Source: Fimicolochytrium jonesii (taxonomy: Eukaryota). From it: DNA of 64,000 nucleotides. The notes under the pieces are model-generated. The model saw nothing but the letters and a program-made list of their open reading frames with translations, searched no databases and had not been told where the DNA came from. The stretch spans positions 992,001 through 1,056,000 of the forward strand of contig NW_026515673.1 in assembly GCF_025526975.1 (NCBI RefSeq), in the 5' to 3' direction. Position 1 is the stretch's first letter. Every line of letters starts with the position of its first letter. Made by a program: the position numbers and the translations under genes. Shown piece after piece: positions 41,965 to 58,805 of this stretch.

Positions 41965-43050
41965 TCAGATCCTGACCTGCTCCAGCTTCCCGCTCATCCC
42001 AAGCAAGAAGTTATCCTCATACTTCCCATTCCCAACAAAGTTATGCGGGAACCCCAAATCAATCGGGCCCGTCTTTTCCAACGTCTCCACATGCGCTTGC
42101 GTCAACTTCTCCACCAACTCCAACGCCGCAATATTATCCTTCAGATACTCCGCCTTCCTGCCCCCAAGAATCGGGAACGTCAGCGGGTACTTCTTGATCA
42201 CGTACGCGATGCACACCTGCATACGCGTCGCGTTGAGTTCGGCTGCGATGCTGTCGAGCGCGGAGACCATTGCGTCGTGGGTATCATGTTTCTTGAAGAA
42301 AGGTGTGCCCTCCCGCGCGGGGGCTTCGTCCTTCTTGTACCGCCCGGCCCCAAGCACGGACCACGGCGCGATGGCCATGCCGAAGTGCTTGACCATGGGA
42401 ATGATGTCGCGCTCGAGGTCGCGTTCTTCGACGTTCCATTTGCCTTGGTAGACCACAAACGGGGCCAGGTTGTGTGCTTTGGCGTACGTATTGGCGGCGG
42501 ACACGATCCAGGCGGGGGTGTCGGACACGCCGAGGTAGAGCACCTTTCCGCTCAGGACGAGTTGGTTGAGGGATTGCATGACTTCCTCGACGGAGGTCGT
42601 GTAGTCCCACCAATGGACGTACAGGAGATCGATGTAGTCGGTTTCGAGGTTCTTCAACGACCGCTCGACGGCGATTTTCAGGTTTTTGCGCGAGTTGCCG
42701 GCGTGGTTGATCCAGATGCCGTCTTTGTTTTGCGGGGTGAGTGGGGACGTGAATTTGGTTGCAATGACCATTTCTTCGCGGTTGTTGCGTTTCTGCATCC
42801 ATTCGCCGATCCATTGCTCGGATTGGCCGTTTTGGTAGTTGTCCGCGGTGTCAATGAAGTTACCTCCCGCATCGTAAAAGGTGTCGAGGATCTTGAAGGC
42901 CTCGAATTTGTCGCATTTGCCGAGCATGCCTTCCCACTCGGTGCCAAAGTTCATCGCGCCTAGGCAGATGGGCGAGACACGGACACCGGCGTGGGCCCCA
43001 AGGACCTTGTAGTGGCCCAGACGGGTTTTGGGTTCTGGTGCGCGTTGCAT
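41965..43050 (-). CDS. Aldo-keto reductase, aryl-alcohol dehydrogenase / norsolorinic acid reductase-like (intronless)
   Basis: VSPICLGAMNFG, GGNFIDTADNY, MVIATKF, YIDLLYVHWWD, GKVLYLGVSDTPAW; catalytic D-Y-K-H present. Confidence 0.95.
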   Translation of the reverse strand: MQRAPEPKTRLGHYKVLGAHAGVRVSPICLGAMNFGTEWEGMLGKCDKFEAFKILDTFYDAGGNFIDTADNYQNGQSEQWIGEWMQKRNNREEMVIATKFTSPLTPQNKDGIWINHAGNSRKNLKIAVERSLKNLETDYIDLLYVHWWDYTTSVEEVMQSLNQLVLSGKVLYLGVSDTPAWIVSAANTYAKAHNLAPFVVYQGKWNVEERDLERDIIPMVKHFGMAIAPWSVLGAGRYKKDEAPAREGTPFFKKHDTHDAMVSALDSIAAELNATRMQVCIAYVIKKYPLTFPILGGRKAEYLKDNIAALELVEKLTQAHVETLEKTGPIDLGFPHNFVGNGKYEDNFLLGMSGKLEQVRI

Positions 43051-45960: not shown

Positions 45961-48900
45961 ATGGCCAAGCGCAAGGGCTCGGACTCGGACGGAGAGCAAA
46001 CTCCTGCACGGAGGAGGAGGGTCACGTCCTCTTCTTCAAGTATGTATCCCGTCGTTTTCGGGCGCCCTTGTGTAGCTCCATCATCTTAATTTGACTTGGA
46101 AACCCCACAGGTCAAGGCTCAACCAAAAAAGAGCAGAAAACCATGGATTCCTTCTTCAAGAAGGATGAGGTCAAGAAGGATGAGGCCAACGGTAGCGCTT
46201 CGGCATCCCACGCCGAGGCGTACTCGAGACCCAAGATCACCACCACAAACATGGGAAAGCTTAACGGGGACTTCATCCGCAATAAGATGATTGCGGAAGG
46301 CGCAGCCGGCGGGCTGCACCCGATCAAGGAAATACCCGATATGTTTTACGATCTTGTCAACAACTGTCCGGCGATCGCGGAGACGGCGGAGGCGTTGAAT
46401 GGCAGGCCCTTGCGTGTGGCAACCATGTGTAGTGGGACCGAAAGCCCGCTTCTAGCACTCGACATGGTCGCCAGAGCCGTCAAGAAGCGATACGGCGTCG
46501 ACTTGCGCTTTGAGCACGTATTCAGTTGTGAGATTGAGCCATTTAAGCAGGCTTACATTGAGCGGAATTTCGCACCCCCGTTATTGTTCCGTGACGTCTG
46601 CGAGTTGGGCGACGATGAAGCCACCACCGCTTACGGAGCGCTTCGAGAGGTACCCGGGAACGTGGATTTACTTGTGGCCGGTACCTCTTGCGTCGATTTC
46701 TCGAACCTGAACAACAAGAAGAAGAATATCGACGAGATGGGAGAGTCCGGGCGAACTTTCAAGGGCATGCTGCGTTGGGTGGACAAGCATCGCCCTGCAA
46801 TGGTCATTCTGGAGAACGTTGTTGGAGCCGATTGGGAGTACGCCGTCAAGCCTGCTATTGAAGCGCTCAATTATAGGTGAGTCACGACAACGTCATGCCG
46901 CTATTATCAACTAAGAGAAGATTCCTGATCATTGGTCGTGTTAATTCATCGTCAAATCTACAGGGCGCAGTTCGATAAGGCAATGGATACGAAGCATTTT
47001 TACATCCCGCACACCCGCCAGCGTGGATATCTCTTCGCGATTTCAAAGGATTATACCCAGGATCTGAATGCGGCCAAGAAGTGGCATAACGTCGTCAAGT
47101 CACTCACTCGCCCGTTCTCCATGCCGCTGGAGGCCTTCCTCCTCGAGACGGACGACCCGCGCGTGCACGCCGCCCGAGAGCAGTTTATCCGCGCCGCCGA
47201 GGACAGGACCGCCAAGCGCGGCCGCCTCGATTGGGAGCGTTGCCAAGGTCGTCACCAAAAAGCCCGCTACGATGAAAGGCTGGGCAAGAAACGCCCCATG
47301 ACCGCGTGGGAAGACGGAAGCATATGCACACCGTTCCAGTTTGCTTGGCCGGAATGGGGCCGCGTTCAGCCCGAGCGGGTGCTGGATTTGATGGATATCA
47401 TGTACCTACGCCAGGGTCTTGAAACGAACGTGGATGCCTGCTACAAGACAATCGTTTGGAATCTGAGTCAGAATGTGGATCGCAATCCCCTGAGCAAGAA
47501 CTACTCGATTACTCCTTGCTTGACGCCTTCTATGATTGCGTACATTACCACTCGCGGTGGTCCCCTGATTGGTCTGTGGGTTGACTTTTGGTTTGAAAAA
47601 CATTGACAGCGTACTCATGAGGAAATCCGAATTCTTTTCAAGGACGAGAAGCGTTGTCTCTCCAGGGAATCATCGTTGACGAGCTCCTGCTCACCAGGGA
47701 GACAGAAGATCAGCTTGCCGATTTGGCCGGTAATGCCATGTCCACTACGGTCGTCGGTACCTGCATTCTCTCCGCGTTGGTCGCTGGCAGGGAAGCAATC
47801 AAGAAGCGTCAGCAAAGCGTTGCTGGAACATCAATCATTATGGAAGTCGATGCTGACGACGAGAAGCACCGCAAGGCGACCGAGATGGTCGGCGAATCCC
47901 AACTCGTCTCGGAACACTACGATCTCGTTACGTGTAAGACGCTACCGCTCCTTACGCTTCTCAAGCAAGCTCGCAACAGCGCCCGTCTATGTGATTGCGA
48001 AGGCCGAGAGATGATCAAGACCACGGATATCCAGTTCTGCAAGGACTGCGGCAATACCGCTTGCTTGAAATGTGGTAAACGACCAGAGCATAACTACGAT
48101 CTGAAGACACTGGAGAGACAGATGCCTGCTCAGTTCGAGGACGGCCTCAAGGGTGTCTTGCCCATGCGCGTCTCGATCGATGGCTTCACTGAGGCGGCGC
48201 TCGAGAGCCTGAAGGGTGACTTGACGGTTGATGCGGAAACCTGGTCGCTCTGGAGACAGACCTCTACGGATTCGGTGCACGGTGCGGAATTCCGATTCAG
48301 GATTCTCAAGAGGCAGCAGGTGTGGATCGCGATCTACGAAACCCCCAGGGCCACACTCGAACTGTTGATCGACCCCATTCAGCCGGAGTGGAGGTTGACT
48401 GTCAACGCACCTGAGACAGACGCCAAGAACAGCCCTCTCAGACGGTTGTTTGAACAACCTGTTGCACGCATGCGCATCGACCCACGTAACGCCGAAAACT
48501 TCCTCGGCGCCGATGGAAGCGGACAATGGGAGCTCAACCTGCCAGCACCCAAATCCTTCACTGTCACCATAACAGGGGAAGGCGAACTCGTTCCGTCATG
48601 GAAGGCCCATCTTGGCATCCTTGCCAACGGACTTGAGCACGAAAAATGGTGGAGTCGTGTCGCCATTTCCGATGTGCCTAAAGACGCCAAGGCCTGGCTC
48701 GACAGGGATATCACTGGCACGTACGTCCTGCTCGACAAATGCGGCACGGCGATGAACGCCTTGCACAGACTTGAGGAGGAAGGCGCTGCAAACGCGGATG
48801 AGATGGATCATCACCCCTTGTTCATGTTCTTGGACCCTACGCGATCTGGCGACCCTAAGCAAGACACCTTCGTGTTCTCCACCAACAACAGGAGGCTGGC

Positions 48901-51900
48901 GTACCTCGAGACCCGATCCATCACCGCTGCATTGCATTGCACCTGGCGCCCGAGTGACATCAAAGGCCCGCAAAAGGTCAAATGCAACGTCAATGGCCGG
49001 TGGGTCCAAGCTGCCGCGATGCGCTTGAATGTACCCCCGGCCGACGAAGCTACTTTTGCGCTTGCGGCGGGAAAACTGGAAGTTGACAGCGAGGCGTGTG
49101 ATAATACCGCGGTCATGCTTCTCAAGTGTAGTGTGCCCTTGACGTACGCGGACTCCATTTGGCCCGTGGGCGAGTGGACCGACATCGAGCTGCAGCATAA
49201 GGGCAAGACCACTTTCGGAACCCTTGCGTGGATCACCGAGCGATTGCCTCCACTTACCGCGCTCGAGGAGTGGATGACTGTTGGCAAGGTATCTGCCGAA
49301 GACAGGTGTCAGCGCTGTGCTCCGACTGCCCCTGCTTTGCGATGGCTCCTGAACGGAAACAAGGCGACACCCGTGGAAGACCCTATCCAAGCCGGACCCT
49401 ACGAACAAGCCCTCAAGCACCGTCCGCAGCCTTTCGTCGCCCAACTCAAATGCGAGGGTGATGTCGGCATGATGCGTGTCGGCGCCAATATCGCCACTTT
49501 ACTCCATCGCGCCCATGCGACACTAACCTCCGGCAACACGTTCGGCGTCAAGCGCACCGAGCCTATCACTTTGTCATGGCGACTCACCACCGAGTACTCG
49601 GTCCTCGACCAGCCGCGATTCGTTTTGAGCAGCAACCGCGCCGACTCGTCTAGCCCGCAGCCCCCGCACTTTACAAGGTACCCGCTGCGACCGGAACAGC
49701 TCCGCTCCTTGAGCTGGATGCTTGCCCAGGAGAAGAAGGATGTTGAACCGTTCTATGAAGAGGAGATTGAGGAGTCGGTTTTGGAGCCTCTGAGGTGGAG
49801 GGTCGCCGCGAAAGCTGAACGGCCTGTGCGCATCCGGGGTGGTGTCTTGGCCGATGAGGTCGGTTATGGAAAGACCGCCATCACTCTGGGTCTCATTGAC
49901 GCCTCGTGGGAAGCGGAGATGAAAGCCGCGGGAGTTTCTCAACGTCAGTCCGTCAAGCTACCCGAAGTCTCGGGCGCGATCCCGATCCGAGCGACCCTGA
50001 TCGTCGTCCCGCCCCATTTATCCAAGCAATGGCCGTCGGAGATCCGCAAATTCACCGACAGCTCCTTCAAAGTCATCGCCATCGAGAACCTCGCGAGGAT
50101 GAACAAGCTCACCATCGCCGAGTTCCAGAGCGCCGATATCATCGTCGTTGCATCCCGTATGCTCAACTCGCAGCAGTACTGGGAGCGGCTTGCGGCGTTG
50201 GCTGGGGACGGCCCCTTACCCGTTCAAGCGGGCCGTCGGTTCAATGTGAGGTACGAGAGCGCGCTCGAGGGTCTCAAAGCGCAGACGGATCGGTTGAAGA
50301 AAGGCGACGTCGACGGCGTGCGGGCTGTGGTTGACGCCAACCGGAACCGCGACGATGACACGGTTCTGGAAGTCTCGAGCAGGAAATCGGGCAAGGAGTT
50401 GATGGCGCTGTTGCCGCCGTCTGTGGAAGCCGCGCTGATCCGGGGAAGGAAGAATAGGCTTGCTATGATGGCTAATAAGGGGAAGGGCAAGTCGGCCTCC
50501 AAAAAGAGGCAGGCGACACTTGATTTTGATGAGATTGAGGAGGATGAGGTGGAAGATGTAGTTGAAGAGGAGGTTGAGGAGGATGTGGATGAGGATGAGC
50601 AGGAGGATGAGGAGAACCAGGAAGTTCTTCCTGCGCGTGTGCGCACCCCGCGCGCCGCCGCGGGGAGCAAGAAGCGCGCGATGGTCGTTGACGATGAAGA
50701 GGATGAAATGGAGCCGGAGAATGAGGATGATGATGATGATGAGTTTGTACCACCGACCGCTGTTATCGAAGTCGCTGACGAGGACGCCGAGCAGGAAGAC
50801 GACGACGACGACAACGAGTCAGAAGACGTGCAAGACGAGAACACGTTTGAAGTCGAGTGCTTTCTCCAAGAAGACGTACCCGCCGACGGATCCGAGACCA
50901 GATACCTCGTCAAGTGGAAGGGGTACCCCAAGAGCCAGGCTACGTGGGAGCCGTATGAGGGCGTGAAGCATTTGACGGATGTCATGGAGGCGTGGGAAAG
51001 GAGGGGTGAACCGAAGGCCAAGAAGCACAAGGCGGCGGATATTTTTACGCAGAAGAAGACTGCGGCTAAGGCGAAGGTTGTGACCAAGGAGAACGCGGAG
51101 CCCAAGGTGAAAGATACGCCGAAAGCGAAGGCTGCGACAAATGCGAAGGTAACGCCGAAAACCAAGCCTGAGGCCAAGAAGGTTGCGGTCGAGGAGGACG
51201 AAGTAGATGAGTTCGAACCCAAGGCCAAACGCGCCCCAGCAAAACCCAAAACCATTAAGCCGAGCGAGGTCGACCCCTGGCACCTTCGCGACAATGCCGT
51301 CAAGCGCGACTGGAGGAAGATGGCCTGTCCGGCCTTGGAGATGTTCCACTTCGACCGTGTCGTGATTGACGAGTACACCTACCTCGAAAACAAGATCTAC
51401 GCTTCGGTCACCCACCTCAGGTCGTCTAAGCGGTGGATCCTCTCCGGTACACCGCCGCTGGGCGATTTCAACGATATCAAGAGCATCGCCAACTTCCTTG
51501 GCGTGCATCTCGGCGCGGACGACACTCTCACGTCCAAGAGGGGCCAGAACGCCAACCAATCCACCGCGGCTGAGCGGTTCCTCTCGTTCCGTGAAGTCCA
51601 CACCCCTGCGTGGCATTCGCGCCGACACCAGCTTGGTCAACTGTTTTTGGACAAGTTTGTGCGTCAGAACCTAGCGGAGATCGACGAGATTCCCGCGGAG
51701 GAGCACTTGATCAATATCCAGCTTCCTGCTGCCGAACGCGCTATCTATCTTGAGCTCGAGCATCACTTGCAAGCCATGGAGATGGACAACAAGAAGACGC
51801 TCAAGACGAACGGTGACAGGGAGAGACGGTTGCGTGAGGCCATGGGGTCTTCCAAGACGGCTGAGGAGGCGCTTTTGAAGCGGTGCTCGCATTTTGATTT

Positions 51901-53452
51901 GAGAGTTGAGGGGAATGAAGAGGAGGGCCCCGTTGTCGCGAAAGAGAGCGATAGCGCCGACGAAGCAAATGGGGAGGACGACGACGACGATTACGCCGTG
52001 GAGGCGGATGCGGACGACGAACCCGTGGTCGCCAAGAAAGGCCCGAAGAGCGCCAAAGGCAAGAAGGCATCCATGACGCTGGTCAAGGCGGCCGGGAACG
52101 CGCGCGAGGCCTGCGAGATCATTGTCAAGGAGCGCGAGAAGCAATTGGCAGATTGCACGGCCAGCCTTCAGAGGCTCGTGGTCAACGCCAACGAGATGCA
52201 CAATACTCTCAGAGTCCGCGGCGGATTCTGGGATGGGCGTACGGCGGATTTCCAGCCAAGGAAAGACCCGCTGCATGAGTGGCAGCAACATTGGCTCAAC
52301 GGAACCGATGTCGGCGATGTCGATGCGGTCGACATGTTGCACGACATCTTGAAGCTGACTGGCACCGTGATTGAAGGGCCCCAGGAGGCGGACCTGGTCC
52401 GCAAGAGAGCGGGCAAGAATGGCAATCCGAAGGGCAAGGGAAAGCCGAAAAAGAAGACGGAGGTCGTGAACGGGGAAGTGGTCGAACTGAAGGAAAAGTC
52501 CGAGGAAGAGACACTTTTTGACCTATATTGGGATTTACGTGAGGTGGTGCATAAGCTGCGTCGACTCGTCAAGGAGCTCGTGGGACGGGTCCGCTCGTTA
52601 AGATACTTCAAGCTCGTGAGGGACCTTCAGAAGACGAGGAAAAACGGGAAGGATGGGGATGCTACACCACGATACTGCCATGGGGAAAATTGCCTGGGAG
52701 CCAATGGCGTTAAGCCGATGGAGACGGAGGGGAAAATCCCACTAGACAAGTTGGCCGTGCTTTCGTGCTGTGGACACGTAGGCTGCGAACCCTGTCTCCG
52801 CCACCACGCGGGCAAGCAGGAGTGCCCCGTGGCAGGCTGCGAAGTACCTGTCCGTCTCAGCAATGTCGTTCTGGCCAAGACCATTGGGCACGAGAAGGAG
52901 GATGAGGAGCTCACGCCTTTCGGAAAGAAGCTTTCGGAGCTAGTCAAGCTCATCAACGGGTTCCCGGAGGACGACCGTGTACTGGTGTTCATCCAATTTG
53001 ACGACCTGATGGGCCGTGTCGGTGAGGCCCTCGACGCTGCGGGCATCGGAAACCTCAAACTGCAAGGCACCACTGCCCAGACGAGTTCGGCATTGGAAGC
53101 CTTCCAACAAGACGACTCCACCGACCCCTTCCCACCCCCCACCGGCAAAAAGCGCACCTCATCCGCCATGGAAGCCAAGAACAACAAACACACCGAAAAG
53201 CCCCGCGTCCTCCTCCTCAACGTCATGAACGAGTCCGCGTCCGGCGCCAACCTGACCATCGCCAACCACGCCATCTTCCTCTCCCCGCTCTTGACCGAGT
53301 CGCAGCAGGAATACACTGCGTGCGAGACGCAGGCGATTGGACGTGTGCGGCGGTATGGGCAGGAGAAGTGTGTCCACATCTGGCGGTTCTTGACGGAGAA
53401 TACTATGGATACCCAGATCTTTGAGGAAAGGGAGCGGACTGTCTTGCGTTGA
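45961..53452 (+). CDS. DNMT5: DNMT5-family C5-cytosine DNA methyltransferase fused to SNF2 ATPase and RING-like finger, with an internal chromodomain (exons 45961-46039, 46111-46876, 46964-47571, 47643-53452)
   Basis: MTase motifs RVATMCSG, FSCEIEPFK, DLLVAGTSCVD (catalytic Cys 46689), VILENV, PHTRQRGY, LAGNAM; SNF2 motifs GGVLADEVGYGKT, RVVIDEYT, WILSGTPP, RVLVFIQF, SGANLT, QAIGRVRRYGQ; CCGHVGCEPC...CPVAGC finger. Three GT-AG introns keep phase. Confidence 0.95.
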
Positions 53453-53750: not shown

Positions 53751-55142
53751 TCACAGCGTGTACAGCACAGCGAACCCAACCAGAATCCCAAAAAATTCAC
53801 ATCGGAAGCTCCTCCCCGCACCGCTGGCCACCGATCGACCCCAGTCACCATCGGAAGGTTGCTGAACATCCGGCGCCGTCTGCGGGATCGTAAACCTATC
53901 ACCAGAAACGACCTCCGCAATTGCCTGCAGATTCCCCGACGTCGACGCCGCAGTCAACGTCGCATCCCCACCACCACCAATCTTCCCACCCGCAGCCTTC
54001 TGATCCGCCTGTGACGGCGTGATCCCGCTGCCCAACTTCAGCGTCCCGGCCTCCGTTTTGAAAGCCACGCTACCGAACGATGTCTTGTCGAGCCCAAACC
54101 ACCCATTCCCGCTGTTCGTCTCCACCTTCACCGTCGCTGCCCCCGAGGCGGTCAGCCCGGCGAGGACGATGTCACCGCTGGTTGTCTTGACGTCCAGCGT
54201 GGTCGCGGTTTTGCCCAGGGACACGTACAACGCCGTGATGGACCCGGATTGGGCGGAGAGCCGAGCTTGGGATGCGATGCTGGCGTTTGCGAAGCGTGCG
54301 TTTCCGGAGGTTGTGGAAGAGACGAGGGTAGCGGCGGATACACCTGATTTGAGGGATACGTCGCCCGATGTTGTTTTGATTTGCAGGTCTTTATTGACGG
54401 TGAGCGCGGCGGTGGAGTACACACCCCCCGACGTCGAGGATACGGACAGACTGTCGAGGCTCGCGGGCGTGGCGGGGAGGTAGATGGTGCTGATCGATGT
54501 GTCGATCGTGATCGGTGGGAGGATGGTGGTGGAGGCGGGGAAGGTGATGGAGATGAGGGATTTGATGCAATCCCCTTGGTTGATGACGGGCGGTTGTTGG
54601 ACTTTTGCGGTGATGGTGTTGGAGGTTTCATCGATGCTTGTGGTGAATTGGGAGAGGAGGGCGGCGGGGCCGTCGATTTGGATGGTTACTACGACGTCTG
54701 GGCCTAGATGGTATGTGTGGGTTAAAAAGCGATGAATGGACACTCGCGACGAGGATGTTTGGGCGAGGTGTTCCAAAATCGCTCGCAGCAGCACTGAGGT
54801 TCCCTCTCCCCTGCTGACATCCCCCAAATGCTCGCTTCGGTCGCCGGAGAGCACGAATGCTCGTCTAGCCATCGGTCGCAGACTCCACCTCCTTCGCTTC
54901 CTTCACTTACCAGTGCCATCATTGAACACCCTCACAGCCTGACTTTCAGCCGTAATCGGCGCATTCCACTTTGTCCCGCCCTGCGCGGGAACCTCCAGCA
55001 GCGAGACGGCCGACAACCCAGCGAGCGGGAACGACTTTGTCAAGGGCGTGCCGGGCGCCGCCGTGCATTGGGCATGGACGCCGATGGAGGATACGCTGAG
55101 AGCGAAGAGGGTCGCGAGGGTGGCGAGGGTGGGGTTGACCAT
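53751..55142 (-). CDS. Secreted, probably GPI-anchored DUF4097/putative-adhesin beta-repeat protein; intron 54704-54910
   Basis: Signal MVNPTLATLATLFALSVSSIGVHA; repeated TTSGDV/TTSGNA/AQSGSI/TNSGN strands; hydrophobic C-terminus FFGILVGFAVLYTL after small residues. Confidence 0.8.
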
Positions 55143-56357: not shown

Positions 56358-58805
56358 TCATCCCGCCTCCGCGTTGGGCGTCGCTGCGAACGCGCGCTGC
56401 TCTTTGGGTGGTTGCGAGAGCGTGCGGGTGGGTGATACCGGACTGTGGCTGCCGTTCGTGGGGAGGTCTGGGGTGCGGCGGGTGGTGGGCGATGCGCGAC
56501 TGTGGCTGCTGTCGTTGACGCGGGTGGGCGACGGCTGGGAGAGCGGGTCGGTTGGCCGTTGTGACGGTGGAGGTGTCTGGGGAGGCGGTGGTGGGGGTTC
56601 TGAACATTCTGCCGATTCCGACGATTCGGAGAATAACGACGATGATGATGATGATGATAACGATGGCGATGAGGGAGTATCTTCTGGCGGCAACGGCAAG
56701 GCAGGGTCCAGGATCGCTGAGGCGGCGATGGCTTCATCGAACGGCGGGGGCGGGGAGTCCGGTATCGAACCCAGATCGTTCCCATGTTCTGAGCAATCGT
56801 CACTCGAATCCGACGTATCCGTATCAGCATCTACCCCGTCATCATCCCCGCCCGCATCCGCAGACTCGGCGGCAGGAGCAGGCGGGTGTGACAAGCCCGG
56901 GGTCGATTCGTGTATCGTGAGTTCGGAGGGAAGGACGTCGGGGGTGGCAGAATAGGGTGCGTCCTCATCCTCACCGGTCGAATGCTCATCATCCCCCCCT
57001 TCGTCAAACTCCCCATCCGCCCCGTCAGCCCTCAACATCGCCCTGATAGCCCTCACCGTCTCCTCACTCAACCCCTCCACCATCTCCGCCACACTCTCCC
57101 TCTCCCTATACTCCGGCACCCACAACTCGACCCCCACAACCTTCTCATAATCCAACACCGGCACAATCTCCGGATCCTCATCCACCACCCGCCCGCACTC
57201 CTCCCTCCCAACCGACGCAAGCACACACCCAGACTCCATGACCAGTTTATCGGCGCCGTAGAAATCGATACTGACTTGTAGGGAGTGGCGGGTTTCGATG
57301 TGGGCGGGTGGGGGCAGGTTGTGGGGCGGGATGGGGGTTGGAGGGAGCGGTTTGGCGGTGGTGGGGGCGAACCCGCCGGTGGAAGGGATGTGGAGCATTG
57401 TTTCGGATTCGGCGGAGAGGCCGTCGCCGCCGCGGCAGATGAAGCCGGGGCGGGGGAGGGGGTGTTTTTCGGGGTGGCGGGGTGGGGACGGTTGGGGGTG
57501 GAGTTGGGTTGAATCCGAAGTGGAGGAGGAGGAAGGGGGGATACGCAGCGGGCGGGTGCGTGGACTGTGACGTGGGGATGATCTGAAATCGGAGAGCTCG
57601 TACTCGCTCTCGGTGGATTCGGGGACCGATTCGGATTGTTCCCAGCGGAGGAGTTCGGACATTCCTTTTACCCGCGTGCCGACGCGTTCGATGGGATTGT
57701 AGGGGTCGTCGGGAAGACCCTGACAGCGTTGTTCGCCGATGACGTGGTGTTCGCGAAGGGATAAGCAGACTCGTTTCAGACGGACGCCCTTTCGAGCGGA
57801 TTCGGGGGCTACGACGATGCGGTAGGCGAAGCGGAGGGAGTCGCCGGGGCCCATGGCGATGGCGCCGACTTCGACGTCGTATTCGACGGGGACGGCGCCG
57901 GGGGCGGATCTCCAGCGGCGGATGTCGGGGTGTAGGAGGGTGGGGAGTAGCCGTGGATCGTAGACACAGAAGGGGTTGAGGGAGGCGGTTGCTGTGCGGA
58001 CGGTGGGGGAGAGGGCGAAAAGGCCGAGGGCGACGGAGGGAACTTCTGTCAGCTTTGCGATAACTTCGTAGGAGATTTTGCCCGTGTATGAGTTGATGGT
58101 GGATGCTTGGCGGCCCATGCAGGCCATGGACGGCGGCAGTAAATGAGGTGATGGGTTCGTTCCCGGCGGCGGTGGCGGCAGCGAGTCTGGGTCTGGGTCC
58201 GGCGGAAACGGGATCTCAAACGGGATATCTAGCACGCTCCCAGGCGGCACAGTCTCCACTTCCGTCAGCAGCGAGACCTACGAGAGACACAGGATGAGTA
58301 CGTTGAGTCGACATCAAGCATCGAAAGTCAACGATCACCCATCAACCATCAACCCGTCAACCATCCCTAAAGACGAGGAGGTTGGCCGATGTTGGGCAGG
58401 AGCGTAGCTCGCTGAGGCTCTCTGAGTGCCTTATTTAGGGTAAGCATTGCACCTTTGGCGCAATATAGGCTCGCTCCGCTCGCGCTTCGATGTCGCTCGC
58501 TTTGGGCACGCTTCGCTCTGAATCGCTCCGCTTTGGCTCATTACCTGCTTATGCAAAAGGACATTCTCCCTGGTCACCGTATCCAACCCCTCCGCCACAT
58601 CCGTGTACGCGGTGGTGGCCTTCCCACTCAACACGACCTCCAGCTGTTGAATCCTCAACGGTTTCGCGGCGGTGCCCAGACGTATCGCCGCGGGCTCGTG
58701 GGCTATGCGGACAAACCCACGGACGCAGCACTGCTCGATGCCGTAGCGGCCTTGCAGGAGGGACGAGAAGCCTGGCAGCGGCAGAAGGGAGACATTTGTG
58801 GGCAT
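56358..58805 (-). CDS. Arrestin-like adaptor with acidic/Pro-rich tail; intron 58278-58544
   Basis: VRGFVRI...PLRIQQLEVVLSGKATT; DIPFEIPF...LPPS...GKISYEVIAKL; IETRHSLQVSI follow the alpha-arrestin N/C-domain pattern. Confidence 0.7.
58407..58535 (-). repeat. Intronic repeat element, copy B
   Basis: Minus strand GCGAGCGGAGCGAGCCTATATTGCGCCAAAG...CCTCAGCGAGC, homologous to 44552-44618. Confidence 0.8.

Follow-up and report, generated by a model that had tools for sequence, protein, structure and literature searches.

The window analysed here, a stretch of 64,000 nucleotides of the chytrid Fimicolochytrium jonesii (contig NW_026515673.1, positions 992,001 to 1,056,000), contains a DNMT5 gene whose product carries a chromodomain inside the first lobe of its SNF2 ATPase. 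The gene lies on the forward strand, as do all the features described within it, at 45961..53452 of the window. It has four exons (45961-46039, 46111-46876, 46964-47571 and 47643-53452), and their joined translation of 2420 aa is identical to the NCBI F. jonesii protein (P0001). The N-terminal 131 aa (45961..46424) precede the methyltransferase (MTase) motif MCSGTE; next comes the C5-cytosine methyltransferase catalytic domain with its target-recognition region (46425..47571), assigned by Pfam PF00145 (E value 2.3e-12) and by alignment to the structure 7R76. Both MCSGTE and GTSC are present, the catalytic Cys being within GTSC (46689), and motif comparison shows that the loop WNLSQNVDR...PC is intact. 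The ATPase is marked by the Walker A motif DEVGYGKT of RecA1 (49853..49876, aa 1222-1229), the Walker B motif VIDEYT (51362..51379, aa 1725-1730) and helicase motif VI, QAIGRVRRYGQ (53330..53362), in which the arginine fingers are intact. A RING2 zinc finger is inserted in lobe 2 (52763..52850); its Cys/His pattern is readable in the sequence, and its Pfam match to zf-RING_5 is weak (E value 0.009, below cut-off).

These motifs, a 1578-bit match to the Cryptococcus DNMT5 (phmmer), grouping with that enzyme in trees and a similar fold in the predicted model all agree with a first-pass annotation, made from the sequence alone, which had named the gene a DNMT5. It is one, with an MTase, a RING insert and an SNF2 ATPase whose Walker A, Walker B and motif VI are intact. 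Equivalents of the catalytic Cys, N447, E637, W590 and motif VI are conserved. Within the hemimethyl-CG flip-out loop, the equivalents of S667, Q668, N669, R672 and C684 are kept, and that of Q673 is an N, at a position that varies in other orthologues too. Conservation of the catalytic Cys, both Walker motifs, motif VI and the loop that recognises hemimethylated sites makes it reasonable to infer an active ATP-dependent maintenance enzyme.

The chromodomain occupies 50846..51004 (aa 1553-1605). The peptide originally flagged (50846-50995) is in frame, belongs to the last exon and lies, as had been claimed, between Walker A and Walker B. With the spliced public protein as query, Pfam Chromo matched aa 1553-1605 at 41.1 bits (cut-off 25.1, E value 1.6e-10), over positions 1-53 of the 53 in the model. 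All 53 positions were likewise covered within the 1943-aa open reading frame (E value 1.1e-10) and with the segment alone (1.1e-12); the Atlas score of the domain is 0.93. Alignment confirmed that the three aromatic-cage positions are filled, by F1553 (50846), W1576 (50915) and Y1579 (50924). The seven aligned domains all have the W and the Y, with either F or Y at the first position. An AlphaFold2 model (aa 1160-1800, 60 sequences) gave three strands and a C-terminal helix, with a predicted local distance difference test (pLDDT) value of 78-95 per 10-residue block. When this model was searched with Foldseek, four DNMT5 structures ranked first and chromodomain-peptide complexes came next, namely Oxpecker, CDY1, Chp1 and HP1 bound to methyl-lysine peptides (root mean square deviation 1.3-2.0 A over about 53-56 columns), in keeping with the HP1-type assignment first made. 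By profile, cage and predicted fold, the domain is therefore a genuine canonical (HP1/Pc-like) chromodomain, and a chance match was rejected. The N-terminus had been described as devoid of a chromodomain, and so it is: the two N-terminal pieces of the protein, including the 131 aa before the MTase motif, have no Pfam match, and a six-frame scan of the 64 kb found the internal domain as its sole match. A second chromodomain exon upstream within the window was accordingly rejected.

The domain is flanked by two linkers. On the N-side, 168 residues (50342..50845, aa 1385-1552) form an acidic linker (61 D/E, 21 K/R), 15-23% identical to four orthologues and mostly predicted to be disordered (pLDDT 40-52 over model residues 271-390). 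The 89 residues on the C-side (51005..51271, aa 1606-1694) are Lys/Ala-rich and basic (24 K/R, 14 D/E), 9-16% identical to the same orthologues and also predicted to be disordered (pLDDT 43-59 over model residues 451-520). Against these four close orthologues the identity is thus 40-53% for the chromodomain, 9-23% for the linkers and 51-68% for the core; the difference between domain and linkers argues that it is the translated domain that is under selection, rather than the spacing. Across the six proteins found to carry an internal chromodomain (see below), the linkers measure 103-178 aa (N-side) and 53-132 aa (C-side). The charge order, acidic linker, domain, basic linker, is found in five of the six (net -20 to -39, then +10 to +16). 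In Gaertneriomyces the flanks are net 0, then -13, and the domain precedes the main acidic tract.

The loop that holds the domain is not peculiar to F. jonesii. It was present in all 202 DNMT5s having both flanking anchors, with a length of 23-344 aa (median 204); by the same anchors, it measures 324 aa in F. jonesii versus 88 aa in Cryptococcus floricola. The RecA1 core of the model superposes on 7R78 (Z 28.8, root mean square deviation 3.9 A, 295 residues aligned). Disruption of the RecA1 fold was therefore rejected: the core still matches 7R78, and the domain is within a pre-existing variable loop. The description of a domain inserted inside the SNF2 ATPase holds for its location between the Walker motifs, but the RecA core itself is uninterrupted. 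The model predicts that the chromodomain is an independently folding bead on disordered linkers. As a separate observation, 130 of the 202 DNMT5s have in their loop region a basic motif of the form (S/T)KRLxG; it is degenerate here (SSRKSG, at the start of the loop, about 50375-50400 of the window). By analogy with the arginine anchor of SHPRH, a human SNF2 ATPase, this motif may contact DNA or the nucleosome.

That the segment is spliced out of the mature protein, or is a degenerate relic, is very improbable. The idea draws on two gene models: that of Gaertneriomyces semiglobifer (P0009) is missing just the 71 aa that contain the domain and is elsewhere 94.8% identical to the model of strain JEL0708 (P0010), and that of Phlyctochytrium arcticum has a 26-aa loop and no chromodomain. 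The former is labelled 'partial', however, and lacks two in-frame blocks, aa 1436-1506 (the chromodomain) and a further 41 aa (1948-1988 of P0010); these are likely to be false introns, and possibly a real loss or alternative splicing. In F. jonesii the frame is open, the public model retains the domain, and the domain is much better conserved than its flanks. There are 22 in-frame GT..YAG pairs spanning it, only one of them with a donor-like hexamer (414 nt, versus 71-87 nt for the real introns) and none with a branch-site motif, although this test is weak because the donor of the real intron 3 is itself non-consensus.

The distribution of the domain was then assessed on 264 DNMT5-like proteins, made up of the 120 listed among 529 matches and 144 more among the best 150 of 2768. 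In this sample, which is mostly fungal, rich in Agaricomycetes and poor in algae, a scan using a profile derived from 420 unrelated chromodomains (which very divergent domains could escape) found eight positives, six internal and two N-terminal; the other 256 had no match, the next best score being 3 bits. Internal carriers are Fimicolochytrium, Powellomyces, Thoreauomyces, two Geranomyces and Gaertneriomyces JEL0708; the N-terminal ones are Borealophlyctis and Cryptococcus floricola. The UniRef automatic label of the Powellomyces hirtus orthologue reads 'Chromo domain-containing protein'. A chromodomain unique to F. jonesii was thus rejected on account of the five further internal carriers, and an internal position common among DNMT5s was rejected at 6/264; the placement is rare, in support of the first-pass reading, with the reservation that few algae were sampled. 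We take the carrier genera to belong to the Spizellomycetales, and those other than Gaertneriomyces to the Powellomycetaceae. Borealophlyctis is placed in the Rhizophlyctidales, a sister order. An enzyme tree of 106 proteins, computed with the loop removed, united the six carriers and the G. semiglobifer model in one clade (support 0.96), as did a tree of 30 of those proteins, also without the loop (Shimodaira-Hasegawa-like approximate likelihood ratio test, SH-aLRT, 97). A larger group (support 98) holds this clade together with Borealophlyctis, Rhizophlyctis and also Saitoella, which was unexpected. The P. arcticum model (P0254) falls outside the carrier group. NCBI files this species under Chytridiales; it is also placed in Triparticalcar, in the Spizellomycetales, and if it belongs there, the internal chromodomain is not universal in the order. 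A DNMT5 of Spizellomyces punctatus was not among the 120 listed of the 529 matches or the 30 proteins whose names were inspected, which does not imply its absence. The internal chromodomain is a lineage trait of the Spizellomycetales (soil chytrids), found in five genera and one carrier clade. An N-terminal chromodomain has been given as a trait of the DNMT5 family (10.1101/149385). As it was undetected in 262 of the 264 proteins, it does not define the family.

How the domain came to be in the loop was considered next. The first-pass annotation had framed the choice as acquisition or relocation; this framing stands, but it did not foresee that the feature would be lineage-wide, nor that the N-terminal domain of Borealophlyctis would favour relocation over independent acquisition. 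Beyond the carrier clade, the DNMT5 of Borealophlyctis nickersoniae (P0007) is one of the closest relatives on the enzyme tree. It has a similar chromodomain at aa 17-66, whose first residues resemble those of Powellomyces, and a 167-aa loop of its own without a reader. His1594 (TWE+9) is present in all five Powellomycetaceae domains and in the Borealophlyctis N-terminal domain, and in only 4 of 431 other chromodomains. Because this rare His is common to the internal domains and to a domain that is N-terminal in Borealophlyctis, relocation from the N-terminus is the probable origin. An ancestor shared with Borealophlyctis would have carried an N-terminal chromodomain, which would have been copied into the tolerant RecA1 loop, the N-terminal copy then being lost, near the base of the Spizellomycetales. 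In a chromodomain tree (70 rows, 56 columns), a check that had been suggested at the outset, the five Powellomycetaceae domains formed one clade (98/93); the remainder was largely unresolved in 56 columns. Constraining these five with Borealophlyctis gave a log-likelihood (lnL) 9.2 above the free tree (approximately unbiased test, p-AU 0.61), and constraining all nine DNMT5 chromodomains together gave +2.9 (p-AU 0.54). A constraint on the six internal domains, Gaertneriomyces included, was 12.7 below the free tree (p-AU 0.35). None of the constrained topologies was rejected by these tests.

Several points weigh against relocation. The His was chosen after the alignment had been seen, and the background pool in which it is rare contained no chytrid HP1 or Clr4; the pool came from a profile search with seven chromodomains (proteins up to 2000 aa), is rich in multi-chromodomain proteins and is biased toward domains resembling those seven. 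The free tree places the Borealophlyctis, Gaertneriomyces, Cryptococcus and Powellomycetaceae domains in four different places. N-terminal chromodomains are rare (2/264), so that an ancestral one implies many losses. The Gaertneriomyces domain lacks the His, ranks 285-449 of 480 against the other five internal domains, and has flank charges opposite to those of the other carriers; it may be a separate insertion. Finally, the chromodomain of a Copia-type retroelement is 52% identical to that of Powellomyces. These last observations suit an independent gain, once or twice, from an HP1/Clr4-like gene or a retrotransposon into a permissive loop, so that the chromodomains of Gaertneriomyces and the Powellomycetaceae would differ in source, while still serving as a tether. 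The unlike Gaertneriomyces domain, apart from the others in the free tree, joined to them at a cost of 12.7 lnL and placed before rather than after the main acidic tract, fits such a history, and the unrelated Tudor readers at other sites of other DNMT5s (described below) indicate that gains are frequent. Against it, all internal carriers form one enzyme clade, a common origin is rejected neither for the internal domains (p 0.35) nor for all DNMT5 chromodomains (p 0.54), and the rare His ties five internal domains to Borealophlyctis. The Copia domain, the sole retroelement chromodomain in the tree, falls outside the internal-domain clade; a region search with the Powellomyces domain returned nine candidates and missed known orthologues, and is no census. 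Independent gain appears a good deal less likely than relocation, and we regard it as doubtful.

As to function, the reading that we prefer, by a little better than an even chance, is that of a DNMT5 whose chromodomain, relocated from the N-terminus to the RecA1 loop, acts as a flexible tether to methylated H3 tails. The cage would bind histone H3 methylated at lysine 9 (H3K9me, most likely H3K9me2/3) on transposon heterochromatin, and would keep the enzyme close to hemimethylated CG sites; the proofreading cycle, gated by ATP, would run as in Cryptococcus, set by DNA rather than by the histone mark. A tether is favoured over allosteric coupling because of the pre-existing loop, the long disordered linkers and the Cryptococcus data. 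In that fungus, the chromodomain binds H3K9me3 with a dissociation constant of 1.5 uM, versus >250 uM for H3K27me, and a cage mutant lowers 5-methylcytosine (5mC) slightly (10.1101/149385); the rates of the enzyme are unchanged by H3K9me3 peptide (10.1101/2020.01.05.895227), and the chromodomain is flexible, without cryo-EM density (10.1101/2021.10.01.462825). Judging from the predicted model and from this analogy, the case for a direct link between mark binding and the ATP-gated step is weakened. One Cryptococcus result weighs in the opposite direction: RecA1 insertions relay ATP binding to the MTase (10.1101/2021.10.01.462825), and the F. jonesii loop may or may not be one of them. In the related chytrid S. 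punctatus, 5mC is confined to transposons (PMC12695648), which bear H3K9me3 plus H3K27me3 (10.1101/2025.03.17.643675). F. jonesii itself has 1.84% N6-methyladenine (PMC11258239), and no 5mC data for it were found in the literature searched.

An allosteric gate would instead have the chromodomain or the acidic linker dock on the ATPase or occlude DNA until released by methylated H3, as in Chd1, and methylation would then require hemimethylated DNA and the histone mark together. We consider this improbable. It retains some weight because the loop emerges from RecA1, the lobe with the insertions that pass on the ATP signal in Cryptococcus, because the order of acidic linker, domain and basic linker is kept in five of the six carriers, and because there is a precedent in the Chd1 chromodomains, which impede DNA binding via an acidic helix (PMC6118821). 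But the order is broken in Gaertneriomyces (net 0, then -13), the linkers are long, variable in length, poorly conserved (9-23% identity) and of low pLDDT, the loop lacks a reader in most DNMT5s, and the Cryptococcus enzyme is unstimulated by H3K9me3. Slimmer still are the chances of a histone-gated DNMT5, in which transfer of the chromodomain and an acidic linker to lobe 1 would have made ATP-driven CG maintenance conditional on H3K9/K27 methylation, combined with two independent captures of a chromodomain by the loop. A further alternative concerns the ligand only, and so overlaps the other readings: the domain may read H3K27me3, that mark together with H3K9me, or a methyl-lysine outside histones, instead of H3K9me alone. 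Its best PDB match in sequence is Arabidopsis LHP1 (E value 4e-9), with CDY1 and CBX7 near, and S. punctatus transposons have H3K27me3 alongside H3K9me3; yet the Cryptococcus domain prefers H3K9me3 (1.5 uM versus >250 uM), and the top structural matches include H3K9me3-bound Oxpecker, CDY1, Chp1 and HP1. The similarity rank of PDB matches decides specificity in neither direction, and we hold a ligand other than H3K9me to be unlikely.

Several known systems are comparable. Cryptococcus neoformans DNMT5 (PDB 7R76, 7R77, 7R78 and 7T02) has the same MTase-RING-SNF2 order and one chromodomain, but there it is N-terminal, and the two domains are weakly alike (1-5 bits). Chd1-type remodellers have a chromodomain and an SNF2 ATPase in common with F. 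jonesii DNMT5 and are the model for allosteric gating; their chromodomains are tandem, N-terminal to the ATPase and packed on it, whereas F. jonesii has a single domain on long linkers in lobe 1, between Walker A and Walker B, and is not of CHD type. Plant chromomethylases (CMTs) have their chromodomain embedded within the enzyme, inserted in the MTase domain. Unlike DNMT5, they belong to the DNMT1 clade and have no ATPase. Two of them, CMT2 and CMT3, are DNA methyltransferases that bind H3K9me2 via the chromodomain (PMC7862722). In lobe 1 of human SHPRH, insertion 1 contains an H15 and a PHD domain, and insertion 2 an arginine anchor for the acidic patch (10.1101/2024.06.26.600687). SHPRH resembles F. 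jonesii DNMT5 as an SNF2 ATPase with chromatin-binding modules inside lobe 1, but is not a DNA methyltransferase, and its readers are not chromodomains; it was not among the PDB matches listed. By motif order, the DNMT5 loop may correspond to SHPRH insertion 2. Precedents are therefore known both for readers in SNF2 lobe 1 (SHPRH) and for a chromodomain inside a DNA methyltransferase (the plant CMTs). The architecture itself had not been known to the first-pass annotation, and it is apparently undescribed: a DNMT5 with an internal chromodomain was found nowhere in the literature searched, including passages of PMC9998398, PMC13297926, PMC7862722, PMC9676040, 10.1101/2023.01.30.526367 and 10.1101/2021.11.30.470311, although earlier domain surveys or supplementary domain tables could show one.

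Other readers were encountered in the course of the analysis. An MMETSP-sourced DNMT5 (P0406) has at aa 1928-1995 a five-strand insert of Tudor fold, in the helical region of lobe 2 between Walker B and RING2 (AlphaFold2 pLDDT 82; best match RDM15 Tudor, E value 3e-4 by fold search). It was unrecognised by Pfam and found by fold search alone. The same insert is present in P0266, P0407-P0409, P0412-P0415 and P0417, and more weakly in P0276 and P0274; according to the models, it is predicted to be a second internal reader site in DNMT5s. P0291, P0302, P0298 and P0292 carry at the N-terminus a PTM/DIR17-like Tudor domain, whose score exceeds the Pfam cut-off in P0291 only. A Copia-type polyprotein (P0403) carries a chromodomain at aa 1023-1076, between integrase and reverse transcriptase, and a marine 1268-aa cytosine methyltransferase (P0217) has two N-terminal chromodomains and no annotated SNF2 domain. 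Around the F. jonesii gene, the neighbours, all on the reverse strand, look unrelated: an aldo/keto reductase (41968-43047), a DUF4097 protein (53754-54866) and a 638-aa open reading frame without a Pfam match (56361-58274). The CpG observed/expected ratio is about 1.0 across the window.

In conclusion, the feature is real and lineage-wide, and the likeliest view of it is that of a known enzyme with its tether repositioned. Were it no more than a tether, it would be an elegant, moderately interesting example of a relocated domain. The chytrid DNMT5 is also a natural experiment on whether the position of a reader can turn recruitment into allosteric control, for which the N-terminal version of Borealophlyctis provides the control. 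For the family as a whole, the picture of DNMT5 as defined by an N-terminal chromodomain is corrected, a reader being usually undetectable across the sample. At least four forms of reader occur where one is present: a chromodomain at the N-terminus or in lobe 1, and a Tudor domain at the N-terminus or in lobe 2. The family thus has the appearance of a conserved ATP-gated core, with chromatin-targeting modules exchanged between permissive loops.

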